A stretch of 50,993 nucleotides of DNA from the NCBI GenBank assembly GCA_017992505.1, contig JAGOON010000002.1, positions 1 through 50,993 on the forward strand, written 5' to 3'. The DNA comes from Minisyncoccota bacterium (GTDB taxonomy: Bacteria > Patescibacteriota > Minisyncoccia > Phycocordibacterales > UBA918). Positions 3,477 to 40,788 of the stretch are shown here, one piece after another. How positions within the stretch are numbered: the stretch's first letter is position 1; every line of letters begins with the position of its first letter. The translations under genes were made by a program, and so were the position numbers. The notes under the pieces were generated by a model. It was given only the letters and a program-made list of their open reading frames with translations. It was not told where the DNA came from and did not search any database.

Positions 3477-3710
3477 ATGAACACCGTCACTATTTACAGC
3501 ACTCCGGTATGTCACTTTTGTCATGCTGCTAAAGAATTTTTTAAAGAAAACAACGTTGCTTACACCGAACATGATGTGGCAGCAGACACCGACAAGCGAC
3601 AGGAAATGATTGATATGACTGGCCAGATGGGCGTTCCCGTAATCCGCATTGGCGACGATGTCATTATTGGTTTCGATGAGCCAAAGCTTAAAGAACTGCT
3701 CGCCCTCTAA
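3477..3710 (+). CDS. Glutaredoxin-like protein (NrdH/YruB type)
   Basis: 77 aa thioredoxin fold with a CHFC redox motif near the N-terminus and a GVPVIRIGD motif. Confidence 0.8.
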   Translation: MNTVTIYSTPVCHFCHAAKEFFKENNVAYTEHDVAADTDKRQEMIDMTGQMGVPVIRIGDDVIIGFDEPKLKELLAL

Positions 3711-10598: not shown

Positions 10599-10607
10599 CT
10601 CTCGAAT

Positions 10608-10703
10608 CTTACAGATTCTGTCCACTCATTGGATACTTTCTCGTTACACTCAAAAGTCATCTCAATGAGTCTTGCGAAATGGGTCCCATCCCATTTCTCA
10701 CCC
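10608..10703. repeat. Two-hairpin repeat module, copy 1
   Basis: cttacaga..ctgtccactcattgg - variable loop - ctcaatgagtcttgcgaaatgggtcccatcccatttctcaccc. Stems are actcattg/caatgagt and gaaatggg/cccatttc. Second copy at 17196-17295. Confidence 0.75.
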
Positions 10704-10767
10704 GTCTCGCAGTTCGTTGCGGCGGGCTAAGGCCGCAACTCACATTGCTCCGACTCGCACTTGAGCC

Positions 10768-10789
10768 GAAAGCAACGCAGGTTGCTTTC
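10768..10789. repeat. Conserved 22-nt hairpin, copy 1 of 5
   Basis: gaaagcaa-cgcagg-ttgctttc. Family consensus is G[CA]AAGCAA..GCAG..TT[GA]CTT[GT]C. Confidence 0.8.
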
Positions 10790-10790
10790 T

Positions 10791-10830
10791 AAACAAATGA
10801 CACTGGTCTCAAGACCAGTGTCATTTGTTT
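10791..10830. terminator. Intrinsic terminator directly 3' of tRNA-Val
   Basis: Perfect 18-bp palindrome aaacaaatgacactggtc-tcaa-gaccagtgtcatttgttt. Confidence 0.85.
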
Positions 10831-15788: not shown

Positions 15789-15830
15789 GCGAAGACAGAA
15801 AGCTTGCTTACCATGGAGTGAGTTAAAAGA

Positions 15831-15859
15831 AAGAACGACTCGCCAAGCGAGCCGTTCTT
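15831..15859. terminator. Bidirectional terminator hairpin
   Basis: aagaacgactcgc-caa-gcgagccgttctt lying between convergent genes. Confidence 0.65.
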
Positions 15860-16147
15860 TTAAATTCTCCTATCAATAAACTCGTTTATTTCGGTAGCTC
15901 GTAGCAGACGTTGCTCTCGTGATAAGAGTCCTCGATCTTTAATGTACCGACTGAACTGTTGCATCATTATCCGAGCCTCTTCGAGATCAGTAATAGCAGA
16001 AAGAGCATTTTCCATTGGAATTGCTTCGGCGGAATTAAAAATATCGTTCTCGATAATGAGCTGATCCTCAGTATCCATTTTTCTAAAAAAGTTCTCGAGT
16101 GGACTTGGCTCTTTCATTTCAAATGATTTGTGATTCTCAACTGACAT
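15860..16147 (-). CDS. Hypothetical acidic protein (95 aa)
   Basis: ORF with TACAAT-N8-ATG upstream and a terminator downstream. No recognisable domain. Confidence 0.5.
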   Translation of the reverse strand: MSVENHKSFEMKEPSPLENFFRKMDTEDQLIIENDIFNSAEAIPMENALSAITDLEEARIMMQQFSRYIKDRGLLSREQRLLRATEINEFIDRRI

Positions 16148-16155
16148 ATAGGAAT

Positions 16156-16161
16156 ATTGTA
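16156..16161 (-). promoter_or_regulatory. -10-like TACAAT, 8 nt upstream of the ATG at 16147
   Basis: Minus strand reads TACAAT-attcctat-ATG. Confidence 0.35.
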
Positions 16162-16200
16162 CACGATGCGGTGAGCGAAATTCACAGAATTTTCATAAGA

Positions 16201-16234
16201 AAAGGACTGGTGCGCGTAGTGCACCAGTCCTTTT
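16201..16234. terminator. Intrinsic terminator hairpin
   Basis: aaaggactggtgc-gcgtagt-gcaccagtcctttt. Confidence 0.75.
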
Positions 16235-16250
16235 CTTTCCTCTGTTATTC

Positions 16251-16470
16251 TACGGGGAATCGGTCAGGAGTCGATTATTTTTATATTCGCTTCACTCGTA
16301 AAAAATATATCGCTCACGACCCTTGCTCGCGATCTCGCTTTGCTCGACAGCGCTCCGCCTTTCGATTCCCCGACGCAAGCAAAGCAGTTTACTTGCTTAG
16401 GATCACAGTTATTTTCAATAATAAAAGCGCCCTGACGGACGCTTTTATTAAGAAAATATTCTGTGATCCT
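16251..16470. repeat. 220-bp direct repeat, copy A (orphan copy of the tRNA-Glu trailer)
   Basis: Aligns with 18012-18230 with about 9 differences including one 1-nt indel. It includes conserved hairpin copy 2 (16375-16396, one stem mismatch), a terminator (16420-16449), and the last 7 nt of the tRNA-Glu 3' end (16464-16470). No intact tRNA follows. Confidence 0.9.
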
Positions 16471-16578
16471 TTGTGGTGCGAATTGGAACCAGATTGTAAA
16501 GCAAATATACTATTTAGCATTAAACACATAAGCCCCAGACTAAATTGTCTGGGGCACGGCGAAGAGCTTTTTTCTTAT

Positions 16579-16983
16579 TCAATTTTCTTCTGCAATCACT
16601 TCTGGAGCAACTGGCTCAATGATGGAACTACCTTGATTGCGGAAATTCAGTCTATCGAACGGCCAATCAATCTCGAAGTCAACCTTGTCGGGGACGACAA
16701 CATTCGGATACTTTTCCTTGAGCCGAGCTATAGCTGATGACAAGTCTTTTTTTTCATTAAACCAAATAACGGCATTCATGCCTTCATCACATATAACAGG
16801 CCATTGCGCCATTACACCACTATCTTCTGGTGTCTTGGTGACATGAATAGCATATTTTGCTGCGATATAGAGAGGGCGACATCCTTGAGTAATGAGATCT
16901 TGATCCTTTGAATTCTTCAGCAAGGCAAAGGCCGTATCGTATATATAAAGATACAGTTCTGGACGTTTTGGTTTTCTGAACAT
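16579..16983 (-). CDS. Hypothetical protein (134 aa)
   Basis: Clean ORF inside the repeat-bracketed insert, with hairpin 16531-16556 downstream. No recognisable domain. Confidence 0.5.
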   Translation of the reverse strand: MFRKPKRPELYLYIYDTAFALLKNSKDQDLITQGCRPLYIAAKYAIHVTKTPEDSGVMAQWPVICDEGMNAVIWFNEKKDLSSAIARLKEKYPNVVVPDKVDFEIDWPFDRLNFRNQGSSIIEPVAPEVIAEEN

Positions 16984-17195
16984 TTCACGTACTCCTTCTG
17001 ATTTGAAGACTACTTAAAATTCTCTACAAATGCAAGAGATATAAAAAGTCCGAAATAAATTCGGACTCTTCTTTTAAACTCGTGACTCTATGGGGAGTAT
17101 CGGTCGTTACATGACCAGTATCCGTTGTCGCTAGATTATTTCTTTGCAGTCATAATCTAGCTGGCAACAGCTTCGATTTCCACGTGAACAGTCTT

Positions 17196-17295
17196 CTTAC
17201 AGAAGCTGTCCACTCATTGGCTAGTTCGTTTCGCTTACAGCTCACAAACCAGCTCAATGAGTCTTGCGAAATGGATCCCTTCCCATTTCTCACCC
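17196..17295. repeat. Two-hairpin repeat module, copy 2
   Basis: cttacagaagctgtccactcattgg...ctcaatgagtcttgcgaaatggatcccttcccatttctcaccc. The flanks are nearly identical to copy 1 (10608-10703) and the central loop differs. Confidence 0.75.
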
Positions 17296-17313
17296 AGACT
17301 GTTTACTCGTAGA

Positions 17314-17366
17314 ATCACGAACAAAAAGAGCGCCACTTGCGTGACGCTTCTTTTTATACTCGTGAT
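17314..17366. terminator. Terminator hairpin with outer stem (tRNA-trailer-like design, no tRNA attached)
   Basis: Outer stem atcacga/tcgtgat around the inner hairpin aaaaagagcgccac-ttgc-gtgacgcttcttttt. The right arm ctcgtgatcc resembles the tRNA-Glu-proximal arm ctgtgatcct. Confidence 0.5.
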
Positions 17367-17520
17367 CCATCTCGGATTGAAGATTGAACTTTGATACTGT
17401 CTTGATGAGTTGTCTCAGGAGTATGTGGAGCTGAAGACTCCTGAGACATTAAAACGGCCCACCTAGATTTTACTGGCGGACCGTCTTTGAGTTCAGAGAA
17501 CTAATTATGCGAGAGACCTC

Positions 17521-17700
17521 TTAGACTCTGCGCGAATACCAGTCCTTAGGCAGATCCCACCAGTCTTCGACCAGTGGACTTTGATGTGTTGAAGTTGGTT
17601 TACCCTTATTGGGCGTGGTGACCTTGGGCGTCAGCGCAAACAGCACGATTGGAAACCCGATTGCGTAGAGGCATAGTGCCAAAAATCCTAGAAGTGGCAT
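17521..17700 (-). CDS. Possible small membrane protein (59 aa)
   Basis: ATG at 17700 lies 3 nt after the stop of the upstream ORF and is preceded by AGGAG. Sequence MPLLGFLALCLYAIGFPIVLFAL... has one TM helix. Below the ORF-track cutoff. Confidence 0.4.
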   Translation of the reverse strand: MPLLGFLALCLYAIGFPIVLFALTPKVTTPNKGKPTSTHQSPLVEDWWDLPKDWYSRRV

Positions 17701-17703
17701 AGC

Positions 17704-17892
17704 TCACTCCTCACTATCTTTTTGGTGTGGTTCCAAAGGATTGCTTCTAAGCTTATCCACCAAGGTATGCGCAAATACGATATTCTCAGGTGGCTTCTTT
17801 TCAGAAGGAGGGCCGTTGGTGTCAGAGAATCCAAAGCAAGGTCCTTTCTGAGGTCTTATCGCCATTAAAATGATTTCTTCTTTTGTTTTCAT
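17704..17892 (-). CDS. Hypothetical small protein (62 aa)
   Basis: ATG preceded by GGGAGAAAG. Apparently translationally coupled to the 59-aa ORF downstream. Confidence 0.4.
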   Translation of the reverse strand: MKTKEEIILMAIRPQKGPCFGFSDTNGPPSEKKPPENIVFAHTLVDKLRSNPLEPHQKDSEE

Positions 17893-18011
17893 GATCTTTC
17901 TCCCGAGCTTGCCTCCGCCAGCTCTGTTTGAGTTGACGAAAGGCAGTGGAATTGCTGTCTTTCAGTATCAAATCACATCCTGAGAATATCTCAAGTTTTC
18001 ATAGGCTTTTG

Positions 18012-18230
18012 TACGGGGAATCGGTCAGGAGTCGATTTTTTTATATTCGTTCCACTCATAAAAAATATATCGCCCACGACCCTGGCTCGCGGTCTCGCTT
18101 TGCTCGACAGCGCTCCGCCTTTCGATTCCCCGACGCAAGCAAAGCAGTTTGCTTGCTTAGGATCACAGCTATTTTCAATAATAAAAGCGCCCTGACGGAC
18201 GCTTTTATTAAGAAAATATTCTGTGATCCT
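18012..18230. repeat. 219-bp direct repeat, copy B (trailer of the intact tRNA-Glu)
   Basis: See copy A. Contains the inverted T-arm word ttcgattccccg (18121-18132), the conserved hairpin (18135-18156), the arm aggatcacag (18159-18168), a terminator (18180-18209) and the arm ctgtgatcct (18221-18230). Confidence 0.9.
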
Positions 18231-18295
18231 ACGGGGAATCGAACCCCGATTTCCAGGATGAAAACCTGATGTCCTAACCGTTAGACGATAGGACC
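18224..18295 (-). tRNA. tRNA-Glu(UUC)
   Basis: 72 nt: GGTCCTATCGTCTAACGGTTAGGACATCAGGTTTTCATCCTGGAAATCGGGGTTCGATTCCCCGTAGGATCA. No CCA. Confidence 0.93.
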
Positions 18296-18574
18296 AAAAA
18301 TGCCCGTGTGACATTCCACCAATCAAATACATGATCTGGCTCGTTTTGCAGGGCGGTAGATGTGCTTGCCAGCAAGTCCGCAAAACGTGACCGAAATAAT
18401 AGCAGACTTTTGGAAAAATGCTAGTACTCCACATCTTCCCACAGGGAAGAGAGTGAGCTTTATAATTAAGGTTGGTATACTGCTGAAAGTACCTTTCAAG
18501 GCTTATCTATAAGCTTTCTCTCTCATTCTCACTAAGCATTTATACACGACGTTTTCCCAGCTTTACCCCCACAG

Positions 18575-34333: not shown

Positions 34334-34687
34334 ATGGAAACAATCATCAAACAGAAACTATCATTTATAGCAATCACCACTTGGCTTATACTCGCCACAC
34401 CATGGCTTGTGGGTGCCCAAGCCTCACAAGGTCTTGAAAATCCCCTAAGAGTTAGTTCCATTCAGGAGTTATTGCTAATTCTTCTCAATCTGGTGATTAT
34501 CATTGCCACACCGATTGTCGTCCTCTTTATTATTCTTGCTGGCTTCAAATATGTAACGGCACGTGGAAACCCAGCTCAAATTCAGGAAGCAACCCAAGCA
34601 CTCACCTATGCAATTATTGGTGGGGTACTTATCATTGGGGCTGTGGCTATTGCAGATATTATTAAGAACCTCGTCAACGCATTTTAA
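34334..34687 (+). CDS. TrbC/VirB2-like small pilin-type membrane protein, paralog 1
   Basis: 117 aa. Signal peptide (…WLVGAQA) followed by two hydrophobic helices separated by a short polar loop (KYVTARGNPAQIQEATQ). Confidence 0.5.
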   Translation: METIIKQKLSFIAITTWLILATPWLVGAQASQGLENPLRVSSIQELLLILLNLVIIIATPIVVLFIILAGFKYVTARGNPAQIQEATQALTYAIIGGVLIIGAVAIADIIKNLVNAF

Positions 34688-34693
34688 ATAGGT

Positions 34694-34951
34694 ATGCAAA
34701 ACACACCAACTACTTTCAAAGGTCTTGTCGGAGTAATTATTGATTTCATCAATATCCTCATTCCCGTACTTTTTGGTCTACTCTTCTTGTATGTTATGTG
34801 GAAGATTATCGATGCCTGGATAATTAACGCTGGGAATGAGACTAAACGTGAAGAGGGTAAACAAATGGTCGTAGTGGCGGTCGTGGTATTTGTACTCATG
34901 GTAAGTGCGTGGGGAATCGTTGCGCTTATTAAACAATCAGTCTTTGGCTAG
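34694..34951 (+). CDS. TrbC/VirB2-like small membrane protein, paralog 2
   Basis: 85 aa with two TM helices and a charged loop (NAGNETKREEGKQ). Confidence 0.45.
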   Translation: MQNTPTTFKGLVGVIIDFINILIPVLFGLLFLYVMWKIIDAWIINAGNETKREEGKQMVVVAVVVFVLMVSAWGIVALIKQSVFG

Positions 34952-35004
34952 TCAAAATCTTGTTTTTACTGTTTAATAAAAGAATTAACCCTAATACATC
35001 ATTT

Positions 35005-35385
35005 ATGTCACGCATTATTGGCTTCTTGCTCCTCAATATCGCATTTATTCCTTCGCTCGCTTTCGCCCAACTTGCATCACGCCAAGGCGGTGGTGCGGGC
35101 GTTGAGCAGTTGATGAAAAATATCCTCGACTTTGCTAACTCAGTACTCATCCCATTCATTATTGGTATCGGGTTTCTTTTCTTTGTGTGGGGAATGTTCC
35201 AGTACTTCATCGCTGGTGGTGCAAATGAAGAGTCAAAGGAAAAGGGGAAGAGTCTTATGATCAATGCCACTATTGGTTTTGTTGTTATCATTGTCTTCTT
35301 TGGCATCATCAATATGCTTACAAGCAGCACTGGTCTTGAAGGGCAGTACATCAAAAACGTCCCTACGGTAATCGTTCCAGAATAA
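35005..35385 (+). CDS. TrbC/VirB2-like small pilin-type membrane protein, paralog 3
   Basis: 126 aa from the ATG at 35005. Signal peptide ...PSLAFA, a Gly-run, and the core LIPFIIGIGFLFFVWGMFQYFIAGGANEESKEKGKSLM. Confidence 0.55.
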   Translation: MSRIIGFLLLNIAFIPSLAFAQLASRQGGGAGVEQLMKNILDFANSVLIPFIIGIGFLFFVWGMFQYFIAGGANEESKEKGKSLMINATIGFVVIIVFFGIINMLTSSTGLEGQYIKNVPTVIVPE

Positions 35386-35486
35386 TTGGTTATGCACAGG
35401 CACTGTCATTTAATGACAAAAAGTCTTTGTTTCTCAATTATAATTAAACAAACGTAGTCACGTTGTTAATCATTTACATAGTTAGT

Positions 35487-35876
35487 ATGAAACGAATTAT
35501 CTATACACTAAGCAGTTCAGCTTTATTAATGGCTCCATTTGCGCATGCGCAAATTACTTCACCAGGTGGAGGCGGTGGCGAGTTTCAAGAACTTCTAAAG
35601 AATATTCTTGACTTCACAAACACCGTTCTCATTCCATTCATTATTGGTATCGGCTTCCTTGTATTTGTGTGGGGAATGTTCCAGTACTTCATCGCTGGTG
35701 GTGCTAACGATGACAAGAAGGAAAAGGGAAAGAGCTTAATGATTTACGCAACGCTTGGCTTTGTACTCATTATTGTTTTCTGGGGTATTGTCAACCTCCT
35801 CACAAGTAGTCTCTTCAGTAATTCAGATATTACTGGTCCAAATAATGTACCGACAGTACCAAACACTATTCCTTAA
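35487..35876 (+). CDS. TrbC/VirB2-like small pilin-type membrane protein, paralog 4
   Basis: 129 aa from the ATG at 35487. Signal peptide ...APFAHA. The core is nearly identical to paralog 3, with a 41-nt identical DNA run at 35182-35222 and 35662-35702. Confidence 0.55.
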   Translation: MKRIIYTLSSSALLMAPFAHAQITSPGGGGGEFQELLKNILDFTNTVLIPFIIGIGFLVFVWGMFQYFIAGGANDDKKEKGKSLMIYATLGFVLIIVFWGIVNLLTSSLFSNSDITGPNNVPTVPNTIP

Positions 35877-35892
35877 GTAGTGAACACTATAC

Positions 35893-35927
35893 AAAAAACG
35901 ACAGGTCTTCCACCTGTCGTTTTTTTG
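35893..35927 (+). terminator. Intrinsic terminator after pilin paralog 4
   Basis: aaaaaacgacaggt-cttcc-acctgtcgtttttt. It lies inside the GTG-started track ORF 35880.., which argues for the later start of paralog 5. Confidence 0.8.
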
Positions 35928-35965
35928 TATTCCCACCAATTGCTTCTAAAACTAATAACCTATGC

Positions 35966-35971
35966 TAGTAT
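35966..35971 (+). promoter_or_regulatory. -10-like TAGTAT, 7 nt upstream of the ATG at 35979
   Basis: TAGTAT-ttcaaat-ATG. Confidence 0.35.
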
Positions 35972-35978
35972 TTCAAAT

Positions 35979-36317
35979 ATGTCACCAGCACAGCAAACAG
36001 CAGTTGCGGAAGCCAATAGTTTTGTTGATAAATTTAACAACGCCATACTGTTTCCGCTTATTGCACTTTTATCGGCTGTCGCATTTTTTATATTTTTGTT
36101 TGGTTGTGCTGAGTATGTCATGAACGCCAGCAATACCGCAGGTCGCGAGAAGGGTATAAAGCACATTACGTGGGGAATTATCGGTTTGGTGGTAATGGTC
36201 TCGGCCTGGGCGATTCTCCGTATCGCAGCGGGGACGTTTGGCTTGGATCAAGAGCTCAGCTGTGCCAATGACCCAACTGGAAGTGGTTGTGATTCAGTGT
36301 TTCAGGTTAGCCCATAA
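35979..36317 (+). CDS. TrbC/VirB2-like small membrane protein, paralog 5 (no signal peptide seen)
   Basis: 112 aa with two TM helices and a polar loop (NASNTAGREKGIKH). The Cys-containing tail reads CANDPTGSGC. Confidence 0.45.
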   Translation: MSPAQQTAVAEANSFVDKFNNAILFPLIALLSAVAFFIFLFGCAEYVMNASNTAGREKGIKHITWGIIGLVVMVSAWAILRIAAGTFGLDQELSCANDPTGSGCDSVFQVSP

Positions 36318-39788: not shown

Positions 39789-39904
39789 ATTTGTGCGTGG
39801 AAGAGTTGAAAAGACATAGGGTGTCTTTTCAAAAGCTCCACTTTTAAATAGTCTCCCAGACTATTTAAACCTGACTGTCCTTTTGTTCTATAAACCGAAC
39901 ACTG

Positions 39905-39985
39905 TGCGCAAGAGAGGACTCGAACCTCCACGGATTGCTCCACTGGTTCCTAAGACCAGCGCGGCTACCATTACGCCACTTGCGC
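39905..39985 (-). tRNA. tRNA-Leu(UAG)
   Basis: 81 nt with a long variable arm: GCGCAAGTGGCGTAATGGTAGCCGCGCTGGTCTTAGGAACCAGTGGAGCAATCCGTGGAGGTTCGAGTCCTCTCTTGCGCA. TATACT lies 13 nt upstream. Confidence 0.93.
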
Positions 39986-40035
39986 AATGCAGGCGAGTAT
40001 AGCAGATTTCGTAGAAATGGGGAATTGGCTCTGTG

Positions 40036-40119
40036 GTCACGAATCACTAAGTATAGCCCCTTCCCTGACGCAGGTTACTAAGTGTTCTCACCAGCTTCGC
40101 TGGTTGCGAGCACTAAGTA
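40036..40119. repeat. GGTCACGA word plus three (T/C)ACTAAGT(A) mini-palindromes (second cluster)
   Basis: ggtcacga at 40036-40043, tcactaagt at 40044-40052, ttactaagt at 40075-40083 and gcactaagt at 40110-40118. Word order parallels 10499-10598. Confidence 0.7.
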
Positions 40120-40194
40120 CCTGCTGTCCCAGCTCGACTGTTTTTCTCCCTAGGAAAGGGGAGAAAAACATGTCTCCGCTTCACATACGAGCAC

Positions 40195-40216
40195 GAAAGC
40201 AAAGCAGTTTGCTTTC
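40195..40216. repeat. Conserved 22-nt hairpin, copy 4 of 5
   Basis: gaaagcaa-agcagt-ttgctttc. Confidence 0.8.
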
Positions 40217-40217
40217 T

Positions 40218-40255
40218 AAAGAAAATGACCATTCCTAGGAATGGTCATTTTCTTT
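40218..40255. terminator. Intrinsic terminator directly 3' of tRNA-Lys
   Basis: aaagaaaatgaccattcc-ta-ggaatggtcattttcttt. Confidence 0.85.
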
Positions 40256-40264
40256 ACTCATATG

Positions 40265-40337
40265 TGCGCCCTCAAGGGCTCGAACCTTGGACCGTCTCCT
40301 TAAGAGGGAGCTGCTCTACCAACTGAGCTAAGGGCGC
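40265..40337 (-). tRNA. tRNA-Lys(CUU)
   Basis: 73 nt: GCGCCCTTAGCTCAGTTGGTAGAGCAGCTCCCTCTTAAGGAGACGGTCCAAGGTTCGAGCCCTTGAGGGCGCA. Confidence 0.93.
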
Positions 40338-40483
40338 ATATCTTGGTCGGGAAGAGTGTACCTGAAAACGTTAGAGCTGACAAGCGCAAGACTCGGTCAC
40401 AGATAAATTTCTTTCAGAAATTTTCCGCGACCCCGCCTCACTCATTCGCTGGCTCACATCGTTCCGGCTTTCGAGTCCCGCCC

Positions 40484-40505
40484 GCAAGCAAAGCAGTTTG
40501 CTTGC
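40484..40505. repeat. Conserved 22-nt hairpin, copy 5 of 5
   Basis: gcaagcaa-agcagt-ttgcttgc, identical to the copy at 18135-18156. Confidence 0.8.
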
Positions 40506-40507
40506 TT

Positions 40508-40568
40508 CCCGGCACTATTAAAATCAAAACCGCACATGTGTGCGGCTAGGATTTTATATAGTGCCGGG
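40508..40568. terminator. Interrupted palindrome/terminator that begins inside tRNA-Leu(UAA)
   Basis: cccggcactat..taaaatc..ccgcaca-tg-tgtgcgg..gatttta..atagtgccggg. The right arm is the tRNA acceptor 3' strand plus trailer. Confidence 0.75.
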
Positions 40569-40646
40569 AGCGGGACTCGAACCCGCACGCCGTTTAACTG
40601 ACAAAGGATTTTAAGTCCTTCGCGTCTACCATTCCGCCATCCCGGC
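40562..40646 (-). tRNA. tRNA-Leu(UAA)
   Basis: 85 nt with a long variable arm: GCCGGGATGGCGGAATGGTAGACGCGAAGGACTTAAAATCCTTTGTCAGTTAAACGGCGTGCGGGTTCGAGTCCCGCTCCCGGCA. Confidence 0.93.
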
Positions 40647-40716
40647 ACACGGGACATATGAAATCATATGCATTTGAGACTATGTATCCCTCGTGTTTGG
40701 TAAAACCAAACCCGTG

Positions 40717-40788
40717 AGTCCTGGGCGGGAATCGAACCCGCGCATGAAGGATTTGCAGTCCCCAGCGTTTCCACTTCGCCACCAGGAC
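40717..40788 (-). tRNA. tRNA-Cys(GCA)
   Basis: 72 nt: GTCCTGGTGGCGAAGTGGAAACGCTGGGGACTGCAAATCCTTCATGCGCGGGTTCGATTCCCGCCCAGGACT. The discriminator is U, as expected for Cys. Confidence 0.9.

Follow-up and report, generated by a model that had tools for sequence, protein, structure and literature searches.

Direct repeats that run from the T-loop to the 3′ end of a tRNA gene are the classical signature of the attachment (att) sites of tyrosine integrases. Insertion sequences of the IS200/IS605 type, as known from IS608, use guides of 4-5 nt and leave no target duplication, and repetitive extragenic palindromes (REPs) are species-specific. The genomes of Patescibacteria (candidate phyla radiation, CPR) are streamlined, at about 1 Mb. 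Here we describe a stretch of 50,993 nt (hereafter the window; contig JAGOON010000002.1 of assembly GCA_017992505.1) from a Minisyncoccota bacterium of this radiation, in which a tRNA-Glu(UUC) gene is followed by a trailer that carries, inverted, the 3′ segment of the gene itself.

Among described systems, integrative elements of the tRNA-gene type accrete in tandem at ssrA of Dehalococcoides (PMC3146451). IS621 reads both strands of its target, the bottom one through the left guide and the top one through the right guide; the donor is bound by a second loop, and duplication is limited to a 2-nt core (PMC11208160). TIGR-Tas arrays have alternating 8-12-nt repeats and 9-nt spacers A and B on opposite strands, with an adjacent Nop-domain gene (PMC12045711).

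Our preferred explanation, which we hold with reasonable though not strong confidence, is that the trailer of tRNA-Glu arose by insertion and is one copy, E(B), of a protein-less family of elements (about 130-250 nt) that occupies the 3′ parts of tRNA genes, mainly in Patescibacteria/CPR, is non-autonomous and site-specific, and presents the antisense of its own target. The trailer belongs to a family whose members have a conserved fold on the tRNA-sense strand, blocks that track the cognate tRNA, repeats and arrays, and insertion polymorphism at orthologous sites.

The tRNA-Glu trailer

All features located below lie on the minus strand unless the plus strand is named. The tRNA genes of the window, eight in number and none with an encoded CCA, were called with ARAGORN and with the Rfam 15 covariance models, and both methods agree with the original prediction that tRNA-Glu(UUC) lies at 18224-18295 (RF00005, 62.6 bits), the gene being intact and ending at 18223/4. 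The end of this gene and the first letters of its trailer (TTCGATTCCCCGTAGGATCACAG, 18221-18243) make up copy 1 of the target segment, which comprises the T-loop, the T-stem 3′ strand, the acceptor 3′ strand, the discriminator and CAG. Two blocks in the trailer are together its exact reverse complement. The left block, CUGUGAUCCUA (18158-18168; plus-strand TAGGATCACAG, pairing with 18221-18231), is complementary to U66-G76, that is to the acceptor 3′ strand, discriminator and CAG, and the right block or ‘guide’, CGGGGAAUCGAA (18121-18132; plus-strand TTCGATTCCCCG, 100% complementary to 18232-18243), is complementary to T54-G65 of the T-loop and T-stem 3′ strand. The inverted words that had been noticed are thus real and do pair, although over 23 contiguous nt rather than the 22 first given. 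A 12-nt antisense match arose in none of 5000 dinucleotide-preserving shuffles of the trailer, the maximum being 10.

Between the blocks stands a 22-nt hairpin, H (GCAAGCAAACTGCTTTGCTTGC, 18135-18156; GCAAGCAAA-CUGC-UUUGCUUGC on the tRNA strand), whose outer pairs covary and which splits the antisense exactly between the T-stem (G65) and the acceptor strand (U66). Read along the tRNA strand the order is CUGUGAUCCUA - A - H - GU - CGGGGAAUCGAA, and the linkers of H, A on the 5′ side and GU on the 3′ side, are conserved. The earlier description of this hairpin as conserved was correct: four copies with no more than three mismatches occur in the window, where none is expected. Upstream of the left block, the trailer (18169-18220) forms the top of an interrupted palindrome (18158-18231) which, as had been proposed, enters the tRNA gene; its 35-nt arms (18158-18192 and 18197-18231) are 77% complementary. 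At the apex (18180-18209) an A-run, a G+C stem and a U-run give the look of a bidirectional terminator, in keeping with its earlier reading as an intrinsic terminator, but a consensus terminator scan made no call there. This hairpin accounts for the apex alone, and not for H, the blocks, the module or the repeats.

Beyond the guide lies a structured module of what we call type 1 (18024-18120), made up of helix P2, whose internal loop is GGA/GAG, of hairpin S2 and of S3, a long hairpin that ends in ...CUGACC; it was recovered by RNAalifold and by a covariance model, R1, built from an RNAalifold-based alignment of 19 type-1 sequences (18019-18158, 108.3 bits). It is followed by direct repeat 1 (DR1, CGATTCCCCGTA, 18012-18023), a 12/12 direct match to the T-loop, T-stem and acceptor start of the tRNA. 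DR1 is copy 3 of the target segment in E(B), truncated by the next insertion, and the right block of E(B) crosses the left boundary of the direct repeat. The element itself contains no open reading frame (ORF).

The trailer is also, it appears, not a described element. Rfam 15, at gathering and at permissive thresholds, gives only tRNAs in the window, with nothing but tRNA at E<0.01 within 15800-18450 and likewise tRNA only at 10 other loci. Known Rfam RNAs (ribozymes, group II intron domains, omega/HEARO RNAs, Y RNA and tmRNA) were considered and rejected, there being no covariance match. A literature search that included the hairpin sequence found no description of it.

A family of elements that tracks the cognate tRNA

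Five copies of the element occur in the window, found by model R1 and all on the tRNA strand: two behind tRNA-Glu and one each behind tRNA-Leu(UAA), tRNA-Lys and tRNA-Val, so that about half of the tRNA genes in the window carry one. The copy behind tRNA-Leu(UAA) (40391-40515, 106.2 bits) has, as had been reported, the architecture of the Glu trailer built from its own tRNA, with a left block GUGCCGGGA at 40507-40515, H at 40484-40505, a right block GCGGGACUCGAA at 40470-40481 and a type-1 module. The copies behind tRNA-Lys(CUU) (40063-40218, 69.2 bits) and tRNA-Val(GAC) (10670-10791, 39.9 bits) belong to a second, 3′-end class, in which the block after H is antisense not to the T-arm but to the last 3-4 nt of the tRNA and the first 5-7 nt of its trailer. 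In the Lys copy the guide CUCGUAUGUG pairs with CACAUAUGAG (tRNA end and trailer) with one G.U pair, and in the orthologous Lys locus L021 (labels from L001 onward denote individual genome loci) trailer and guide are altered together; the L021 duplex is of 11 bp with two G.U pairs. In the Val copy the guide CUCAAGUGCG pairs with CGCACUUGAG, and H carries two compensatory pair changes. The Lys, Val and Leu(UAA) trailers share with that of tRNA-Glu both H and, 15-17 nt further on, the motif RGNCGGAGNNAUGU...

Outside the window, a search with the exact pattern of the H core (AAGCAAMCTGCKTTGCTT), at one genome per species, returned at least 120 genome stretches, overwhelmingly from Patescibacteria (Saccharibacteria, Paceibacterota, Kaiser-, Nomura-, Moranii- and Yonathbacteria among others in the matches listed), with a minority, among the matches listed, from Campylobacterales, Elusimicrobia, Clostridia, a Leptospira and a few Gammaproteobacteria. 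Model R1 gave 134 hits in 100 sources, including copies in which H departs from the pattern yet keeps its pairs. We examined 129 H hairpins among the matches listed, and 63 of these lie within 150 nt downstream of a tRNA gene on the same strand; just 3 are in the opposite orientation to their neighbouring tRNA, and 6 stand just upstream of a same-strand tRNA, five of these being tRNA-Ser genes. The tRNAs that carry elements span, among the matches listed, most specificities. A Campylobacterales metagenome-assembled genome (L034, about 3480-3660) has H and P2/S2 without tRNA antisense, oriented opposite to the tRNA and between direct repeats of 35 nt that correspond to a tRNA 3′ end (CCA and trailer). 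The remaining copies from Campylobacterales are simple hairpins between genes (GAAGCGUAAAGAAA-H-UUUUAGCUUC).

The blocks follow the tRNA behind which they stand. The right block (3′ of H) matches its cognate tRNA over at least 11 nt at 29 of the 63 tRNA-linked loci, against 29 of 3780 non-cognate pairings, and the left block (5′ of H) over at least 10 nt at 19 of 63, against 5 of 3780. Guides track even unusual T-loops (TCCGA in L090, TGCAA in L006), and H sits at the exact 65/66 junction in different tRNAs. Mismatches in the block:tRNA duplexes are of the G.U type in 31 cases and of the A.C type in 14. As a separate observation, deviating stems and guide:target duplexes often have G.U on the tRNA-sense strand, for instance in H of the second Glu copy (16375-16396), in the Lys guide (40182-40191), in L021 and in L066.

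Where the tRNA-linked copy and the downstream repeat differ, the guide follows the former in 37 cases and the latter in 0, a count biased in that the register was set on the tRNA and that many of the differing positions fall at the repeat boundary. This fits an element whose sense copy rebuilds the tRNA and is accompanied by the antisense copy, while the displaced chromosomal end decays. In several sub-families the guide has changed opposite C56-A58, from U to G or from UC to GA (L009, L020, L099 and L113, …GACGAGAA; L030, L080, L096 and L105, …AGGCGAA / AAGCGAA); as this is also where the direct repeats start, these mismatches may mark a cleavage or crossover site.

A mirror-image class was also met (L085, L088, the minus-strand copy of L089, L102 and L049), with H directly after a partial 5′ copy of tRNA-Ser (GGAGAGGTGGCTGAGTGG-ATG-H-CAT...). 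Flanking direct repeats of the 5′ 12-21 nt of the tRNA in L085, L088, L089 and L102 suggest that this class was inserted in the D-loop region.

Evidence for insertion

The original prediction took the shared architecture of the Glu and Leu trailers as selection for pairing rather than as copies of one mobile element. We find otherwise: the trailers are copies of one family, since a single covariance model recovers the shared hairpin and the covarying scaffold, and the family bears the marks of insertion, with direct repeats of tRNA segments, tandem and nested arrays, and presence or absence at orthologous tRNA spacers.

Exact flanking repeats of at least 12 nt accompany 43 of 120 listed elements, against 4 of 120 shuffled controls. 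They are about 12-30 nt long; the repeated tRNA segment usually runs from C56 or R57 to the 3′ end plus 1-6 nt, and in about two thirds of the copies of the T-loop class it recurs at 70-130 nt past H. As in classical integrative elements, the tRNA-Glu gene of the window is intact and displaced 3′ fragments lie downstream, with DR1 (18012-18023) and DR3 (16242-16262) as repeats of the tRNA 3′ segment in the manner of an att core. Units are tandem or nested in L012, L020, L024, L115 and the Glu islet of the window, and near-identical backbones (of the type 2 described below) stand behind different tRNAs (Gly-CCC in L030, Leu-UAA in L033, Gly-UCC in L105).

Orthologous sites are found both empty and occupied. 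In the syntenic cluster infB-rbfA-tRNA(Cys)-tRNA(Leu-UAA)-tRNA(Lys)-tRNA(Leu-UAG), empty spacers measure 3-37 nt and filled ones 200-860 nt, and the filled spacers differ between genomes. Between Cys and Leu, for example, empty spacers of 10, 24, 37 or 69 nt stand against H-bearing ones of 306 or 390 nt, and between Lys and Leu(UAG) the 3 nt of L033 stand against 278 nt, including H, in the window. At tRNA-Glu, relatives (L029, L067, L089, L116) have a 3′-end-class element where this genome has T-loop-class copies. Thus the direct repeats, the arrays, the empty and filled spacers and the 63:3 co-orientation indicate insertions that restore the tRNA gene. Part of the Cys-Leu-Lys-Leu cluster, at 39904-40788 in the window, is inverted in L008, L058 and L122, where Lys, Leu(UAG) or both have changed strand and the ends of the inversion fall in element-bearing spacers. 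The sister contigs from the same samples (L002-L004 and L136-L141) end inside the element.

A conserved single-strand fold

After the guide there follows one of two alternative modules, all five window copies having type 1. In type 1, helix P2 with a GNA/GAG internal loop is followed by the variable hairpin S2 and by the long hairpin S3, which ends ...GUGACC at the repeat; type 2 opens with a hairpin GGCUUUUCC...GGAAAAG, which is followed by GUACNG and by a hairpin of 5 bp whose loop is UGUAA. RNAalifold on the 19 type-1 sequences recovers H, P2 and S3, with double compensatory changes in 18 of 28 pairs; at pair 41:90 of P2, for instance, 10 sequences have C-G and 8 have G-C. Paired cells make up 93.3%, against 64.9% when shuffled and at most 46% when partners are slid, and the covariation score is 0.508 against 0.133 (reached by 0 of 500 shuffles), both in an alignment that was itself fitted to model R1, which lessens their weight for the explanation that we prefer.

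The tRNA-sense strand is the more stable one in 54 of 58 type-1 modules with RNA parameters (by a mean of -6.5 kcal/mol) and in 53 of 58 with DNA parameters. This folding bias argues that one specific single strand is under structural selection; as the bias holds with both parameter sets, the strand that folds may equally be RNA or single-stranded DNA (ssDNA). In many copies the long hairpins are capped by a purine-rich loop motif, GAGCGAAGCGA / GCGACGGC (tandem AGCGA), in S3 loops and in many left-hand hairpins (L041, L058, L060, L087, L090 and L097 among them).

The tRNA-Glu islet and its surroundings

Downstream of E(B) lies a second whole copy, E(A) (16236-16470; model R1 16258-16398, 95.6 bits), so that a trailer of about 235 bp is directly repeated 1760 bp apart (16236-16470 and 17997-18230) with 96% identity. 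Its right block is at 16361-16372, H at 16375-16396 with one U.G wobble, and its left block at 16398-16408. The full order of the islet is tRNA, E(B), DR1, two small ORFs (62 and 59 aa), a module fragment (17195-17295), a Q hairpin with DR2 and a further hairpin, ORF134, a right-end motif with AGGATCACAG, E(A), DR3, a terminator and ORF95. The Q hairpin (loop UGUAA, 17102-17123) and DR2 (GATACTCCCCATAGAGTCAC, 17082-17101; a degenerate tRNA-Glu 3′ end, the third in the islet) form the right end, 17082-17123, of a cargo-bearing element. At 16461-16490 the right-end motif GGTTCCAATTCGCACCACAA (16471-16490) abuts AGGATCACAG (16461-16470), which directly repeats the final 10 nt of copy 1. DR3 (CGATTCCCCGTAGAATAACAG, 16242-16262) is a displaced, degenerate tRNA-Glu 3′ end, and the strong hairpin that follows it (16195-16240) is probably the original tRNA-Glu terminator. 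The locus is thus an accretion of at least three insertions (DR1, DR2, DR3) with small ORFan cargo.

The module fragment at 17195-17295 resembles 10607-10703 behind tRNA-Val. Both belong to a conserved block of about 100 nt (GGGUGAGAAAUGGG...CCAAUGAGUGGACAG-stem-UGUAAG-stem) that is also weakly present at 615-646, and the stem of its UGUAA hairpin covaries (AAUC/GAUU and CUUC/GAAG). ORF134 (134 aa) is an ORFan for which the homologue search gave one relative, L142 (a JGI 3300046018 contig). In the matching islet of L142 (1-900) a different gene, of 197 aa and with a weak HamA_HO-like hit, is framed on one side by a type-1 right end with a tRNA-Glu-like repeat (GATCATTCCCCGTAGAGTCAC) and on the other by a further repeat, which hints at an exchange of cargo at the tRNA-Glu hotspot.

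The window as a whole (G+C 45%) has a gene content of Patescibacteria/CPR type, with ftsA, ftsZ, trxB, glmS, infB, rbfA, gyrA, clpB and T4SS-pilin paralogues. Four of the latter, with T4SS-pilin (PF18895) domains, stand in tandem at 34334-36317 and contain direct DNA repeats (35065-35327 and 35547-35809, 73% identity).

Discussion

An integrated copy, read in tRNA orientation, consists of a restored tRNA 3′ segment, often a terminator-like hairpin, the acceptor antisense, H, the T-stem/T-loop antisense, the module and a direct repeat. We propose that the element is, or formerly was, mobile by site-specific insertion, with a crossover or nick in the T-loop or, for the second class, at the tRNA 3′ end. 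Such an element would supply its own tRNA 3′ end and terminator, so that the host gene would stay functional. The specificity device would be the pair of sense and antisense copies with H at the branch: the single-stranded element, as transcript or as ssDNA, may fold so that the blocks flanking H pair with the target-site sequence, and a putative enzyme encoded in trans may recognise H and the module and act on the paired complex. A circular form would show the head-to-tail junction ...GACC joined to GATTCCCCGTAGGATCACAG. It is conceivable, and we put this forward only tentatively, that this amounts to a programmable, nucleic-acid-guided insertion system, in which an H-bound enzyme acts in trans, the site is chosen by a bipartite antisense of 11 + 12 nt to one strand, and retargeting has reached most tRNA species through the T-loop, 3′-end and D-loop classes.

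Several findings weigh against this explanation. Among the window ORFs Pfam finds no recombinase, transposase or reverse transcriptase, and none recurs within +/-3.5 kb of the 129 listed copies. Apart from the E(A)/E(B) duplication, the copies in this genome are highly diverged, so that recent transposition is not demonstrated, and no element was found with identical sequence at two sites of one genome. No free or circular form was seen among the assembled contigs. Campylobacterales relatives keep H and P2/S2 without the tRNA antisense, and the cargo-bearing units of the islet are without H and guide, so that neither is needed for every insertion at the tRNA-Glu site. Many copies have a terminator-like hairpin upstream of the blocks, and it is doubtful that a ‘guide’ so placed would be transcribed abundantly.

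The search for a partner protein, by all-against-all clustering of 829 ORFs around the 129 listed copies, gave only housekeeping synteny (infB, rbfA, trxB, rplS and others). A protein of 226-234 aa with an N-terminal helix-turn-helix (HTH) of resolvase/transposase type and an uncharacterised, GLYWGEG-like C-terminal domain occurs no more than 2.6 kb from elements at 3 of about 120 listed loci (L024, L065, L098); its Pfam hits are to HTH families only, and it is the sole DNA-binding candidate met more than once near elements.

Three other explanations of the trailer have to be weighed against an inserted element. The original prediction supposed a fold competing with the cloverleaf, in effect a cis-acting pre-tRNA element, in which the trailer of a read-through transcript captures the T-arm and acceptor 3′ strand and controls 3′ processing, quality control or the coupling to termination. 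In silico this fold is indeed strongly favoured for a read-through transcript: the minimum free energy structure of tRNA-Glu plus trailer is the trailer-paired form (-128.7 kcal/mol, z = -9.05), and relative to tRNA and trailer folded separately it gains 17.9 kcal/mol for Glu and 24.5 kcal/mol for Leu. Retention of pairing with the live tRNA copy, the G.U bias of the duplexes, the joint change of trailer and guide, with G.U pairs, between the orthologous Lys elements of the window and L021, and copies without a terminator after the tRNA (L066, L033 and L105, for example) would all suit such a role. A regulatory trailer, however, needs no repeat of the tRNA 3′ end, no arrays and no patchy presence at orthologous sites, only about half of the window tRNAs have one, and a tRNA whose 3′ half is captured over 23 bp would be destroyed, not tuned. 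Relatives away from tRNAs exist, and L034 is in the opposite orientation. A transcript that reaches only to the apex hairpin gains no energy, and the presence of a terminator-like hairpin between the tRNA and the blocks in many copies argues against a routine role in tRNA processing. We therefore consider a cis-acting element unlikely; the competing fold is probably a by-product held in check by the apex hairpin.

Equally, the repeats might be passive scars, that is the attL/attR arms of decayed integrase islands or prophages, with the antisense a functionless by-product of a palindromic terminator. Their T-loop-to-3′-end form is that of tyrosine-integrase att sites, cargo ORFs lie between the repeats of the Glu islet, the related islet has its weak HamA-like gene, and the small elements encode no enzyme. 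But decay sits badly with a hairpin and scaffold that are kept, with compensatory changes, across CPR classes and other phyla, with a strand-specific folding bias, and with the exact placing of H at the 65/66 junction in different tRNAs; moreover no integrase remnant stands beside any of the 129 listed copies, and blastn of the element against phage and plasmid collections gave no match. Ten H-pattern hits in IMG/VR were dismissed as chance matches in coding or unrelated DNA, leaving no match there either. We think an origin as scars improbable. A stand-alone non-coding RNA gene is the remaining reading: the blocks and the downstream repeat would form a minihelix of acceptor/T type, from which RNase P and the tRNA 3′ enzymes would release a stable RNA of about 150-200 nt, in the manner of dicistronic tRNA-snoRNA or mascRNA-type processing. 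It agrees with the covarying helices, with co-orientation with the tRNA and with the predicted pairing, in the trailer alone, of guide with DR1, closing a P2/S3 junction; RNase Z-processed dicistronic tRNA-snoRNA genes offer a precedent that appears as an entry in the reference list of PMC12045711. Nevertheless the guide keeps its match to the tRNA copy as the repeat downstream decays, the truncation of DR1 to 12 nt makes an acceptor-like helix impossible in E(B), and a complement of the guide lies within 300 nt downstream in only about 22 of the 129 listed copies, against 71 upstream. We regard such a gene family as decidedly improbable.

Whichever way the blocks act, an element stands in streamlined genomes behind about half of the tRNA genes of the window and at tRNA genes of more than 100 other genomes, and it defines a family of structured non-coding sequences that is widespread and has no Rfam entry. 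It explains the variability of CPR tRNA spacers and the assembly breaks found there, and it marks the regions downstream of tRNA-Glu as accretion sites for small cargo. If the blocks are the specificity device, the retargeted series, with one scaffold and many tRNAs, would be a ready data set for a new mechanism of base-pairing-guided insertion; if instead they act on the transcript, this would be a new coupling of a selfish element to tRNA maturation.

Comparison with known systems

In its target and in its genetic consequences the inserted element is like the islands and prophages of tyrosine integrases, which also enter tRNA 3′ ends, restore the gene, leave a T-loop-to-3′-end repeat, pile up downstream and carry variable cargo. 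It differs in its size of 130-250 nt, in having no integrase, in its absence from the viral and plasmid collections searched, and in an internal, inverted att copy that is split by a conserved hairpin and joined to a covarying structured module. It parts from a classical integrase-type element in that no integrase of its own was found beside the att site among the window ORFs, nor a recurrent recombinase within +/-3.5 kb of the 129 listed copies. CTX-phi attP and integron attC sites come nearer in form: spaced sense and antisense copies of a site fold into a duplex that mimics the chromosomal target, a branch or extrahelical feature marks the strand, and an inverted pair is left at one end after integration. 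Here, in contrast, a tRNA gene takes the place of dif or attI as target, the remainder of the element is highly structured too, the T-stem 5′ arm on which a tyrosine recombinase would depend is missing from the folded duplex, and an ssDNA form is only putative.

A hairpin-interrupted bipartite antisense that forms a three-way junction on a contiguous substrate is also seen in H/ACA guides and in the cis guides of archaeal pre-tRNA introns, the latter likewise encoded beside the matching tRNA. Unlike H/ACA guides, the element has no H/ACA boxes and no unpaired target dinucleotide at the junction, and its direct repeats point to DNA insertion; to our knowledge bacteria have no Cbf5-type ribonucleoproteins. 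H/ACA, group II intron and box C/D readings were ruled out on architecture, by inspection of the sequence. TIGR-Tas was set aside as well, its architecture being different, with neither an array nor a Tas gene here, as was a miniature inverted-repeat transposable element, in that the inverted repeats are internal and target-derived, the flanking repeat is of 12-30 nt and not 2-10 bp, and no parent insertion sequence was found.

The bridge (seek) RNAs of IS110/IS1111 are likewise structured non-coding RNAs of 150-250 nt in a mobile element, with two target-matching guides that flank a stem-loop. They differ in having a donor loop and one guide for each of the opposite strands, whereas both blocks here are contiguous antisense to one strand, with no evident donor loop, a repeat of about 20 nt and no DEDD recombinase gene; an element of this kind was rejected on the same-strand, contiguous blocks and the lack of an ORF. 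With IS200/IS605, palindrome-associated transposable elements and REP/RAYT systems the element would have in common hairpin ends and a short guide, beside a protein-bound hairpin, that pairs with the cleavage or target site, as well as strand-specific folding and, as in IS200/IS605 derivatives, small protein-less forms that are mobilised in trans. It departs from IS200/IS605 in guides of 11 + 12 nt and in its flanking repeat of 18-25 nt, and from these and the REPs in that no TnpA/RAYT gene was seen near the copies and that H is conserved across phyla. By analogy, its closest logic resembles the hairpin-plus-guide recognition of IS200/IS605, or that of folded ssDNA att sites. Site-specific insertion into tRNA genes and non-coding, guide-bearing mobile DNA are therefore of a known kind, and it is the architecture that is new.

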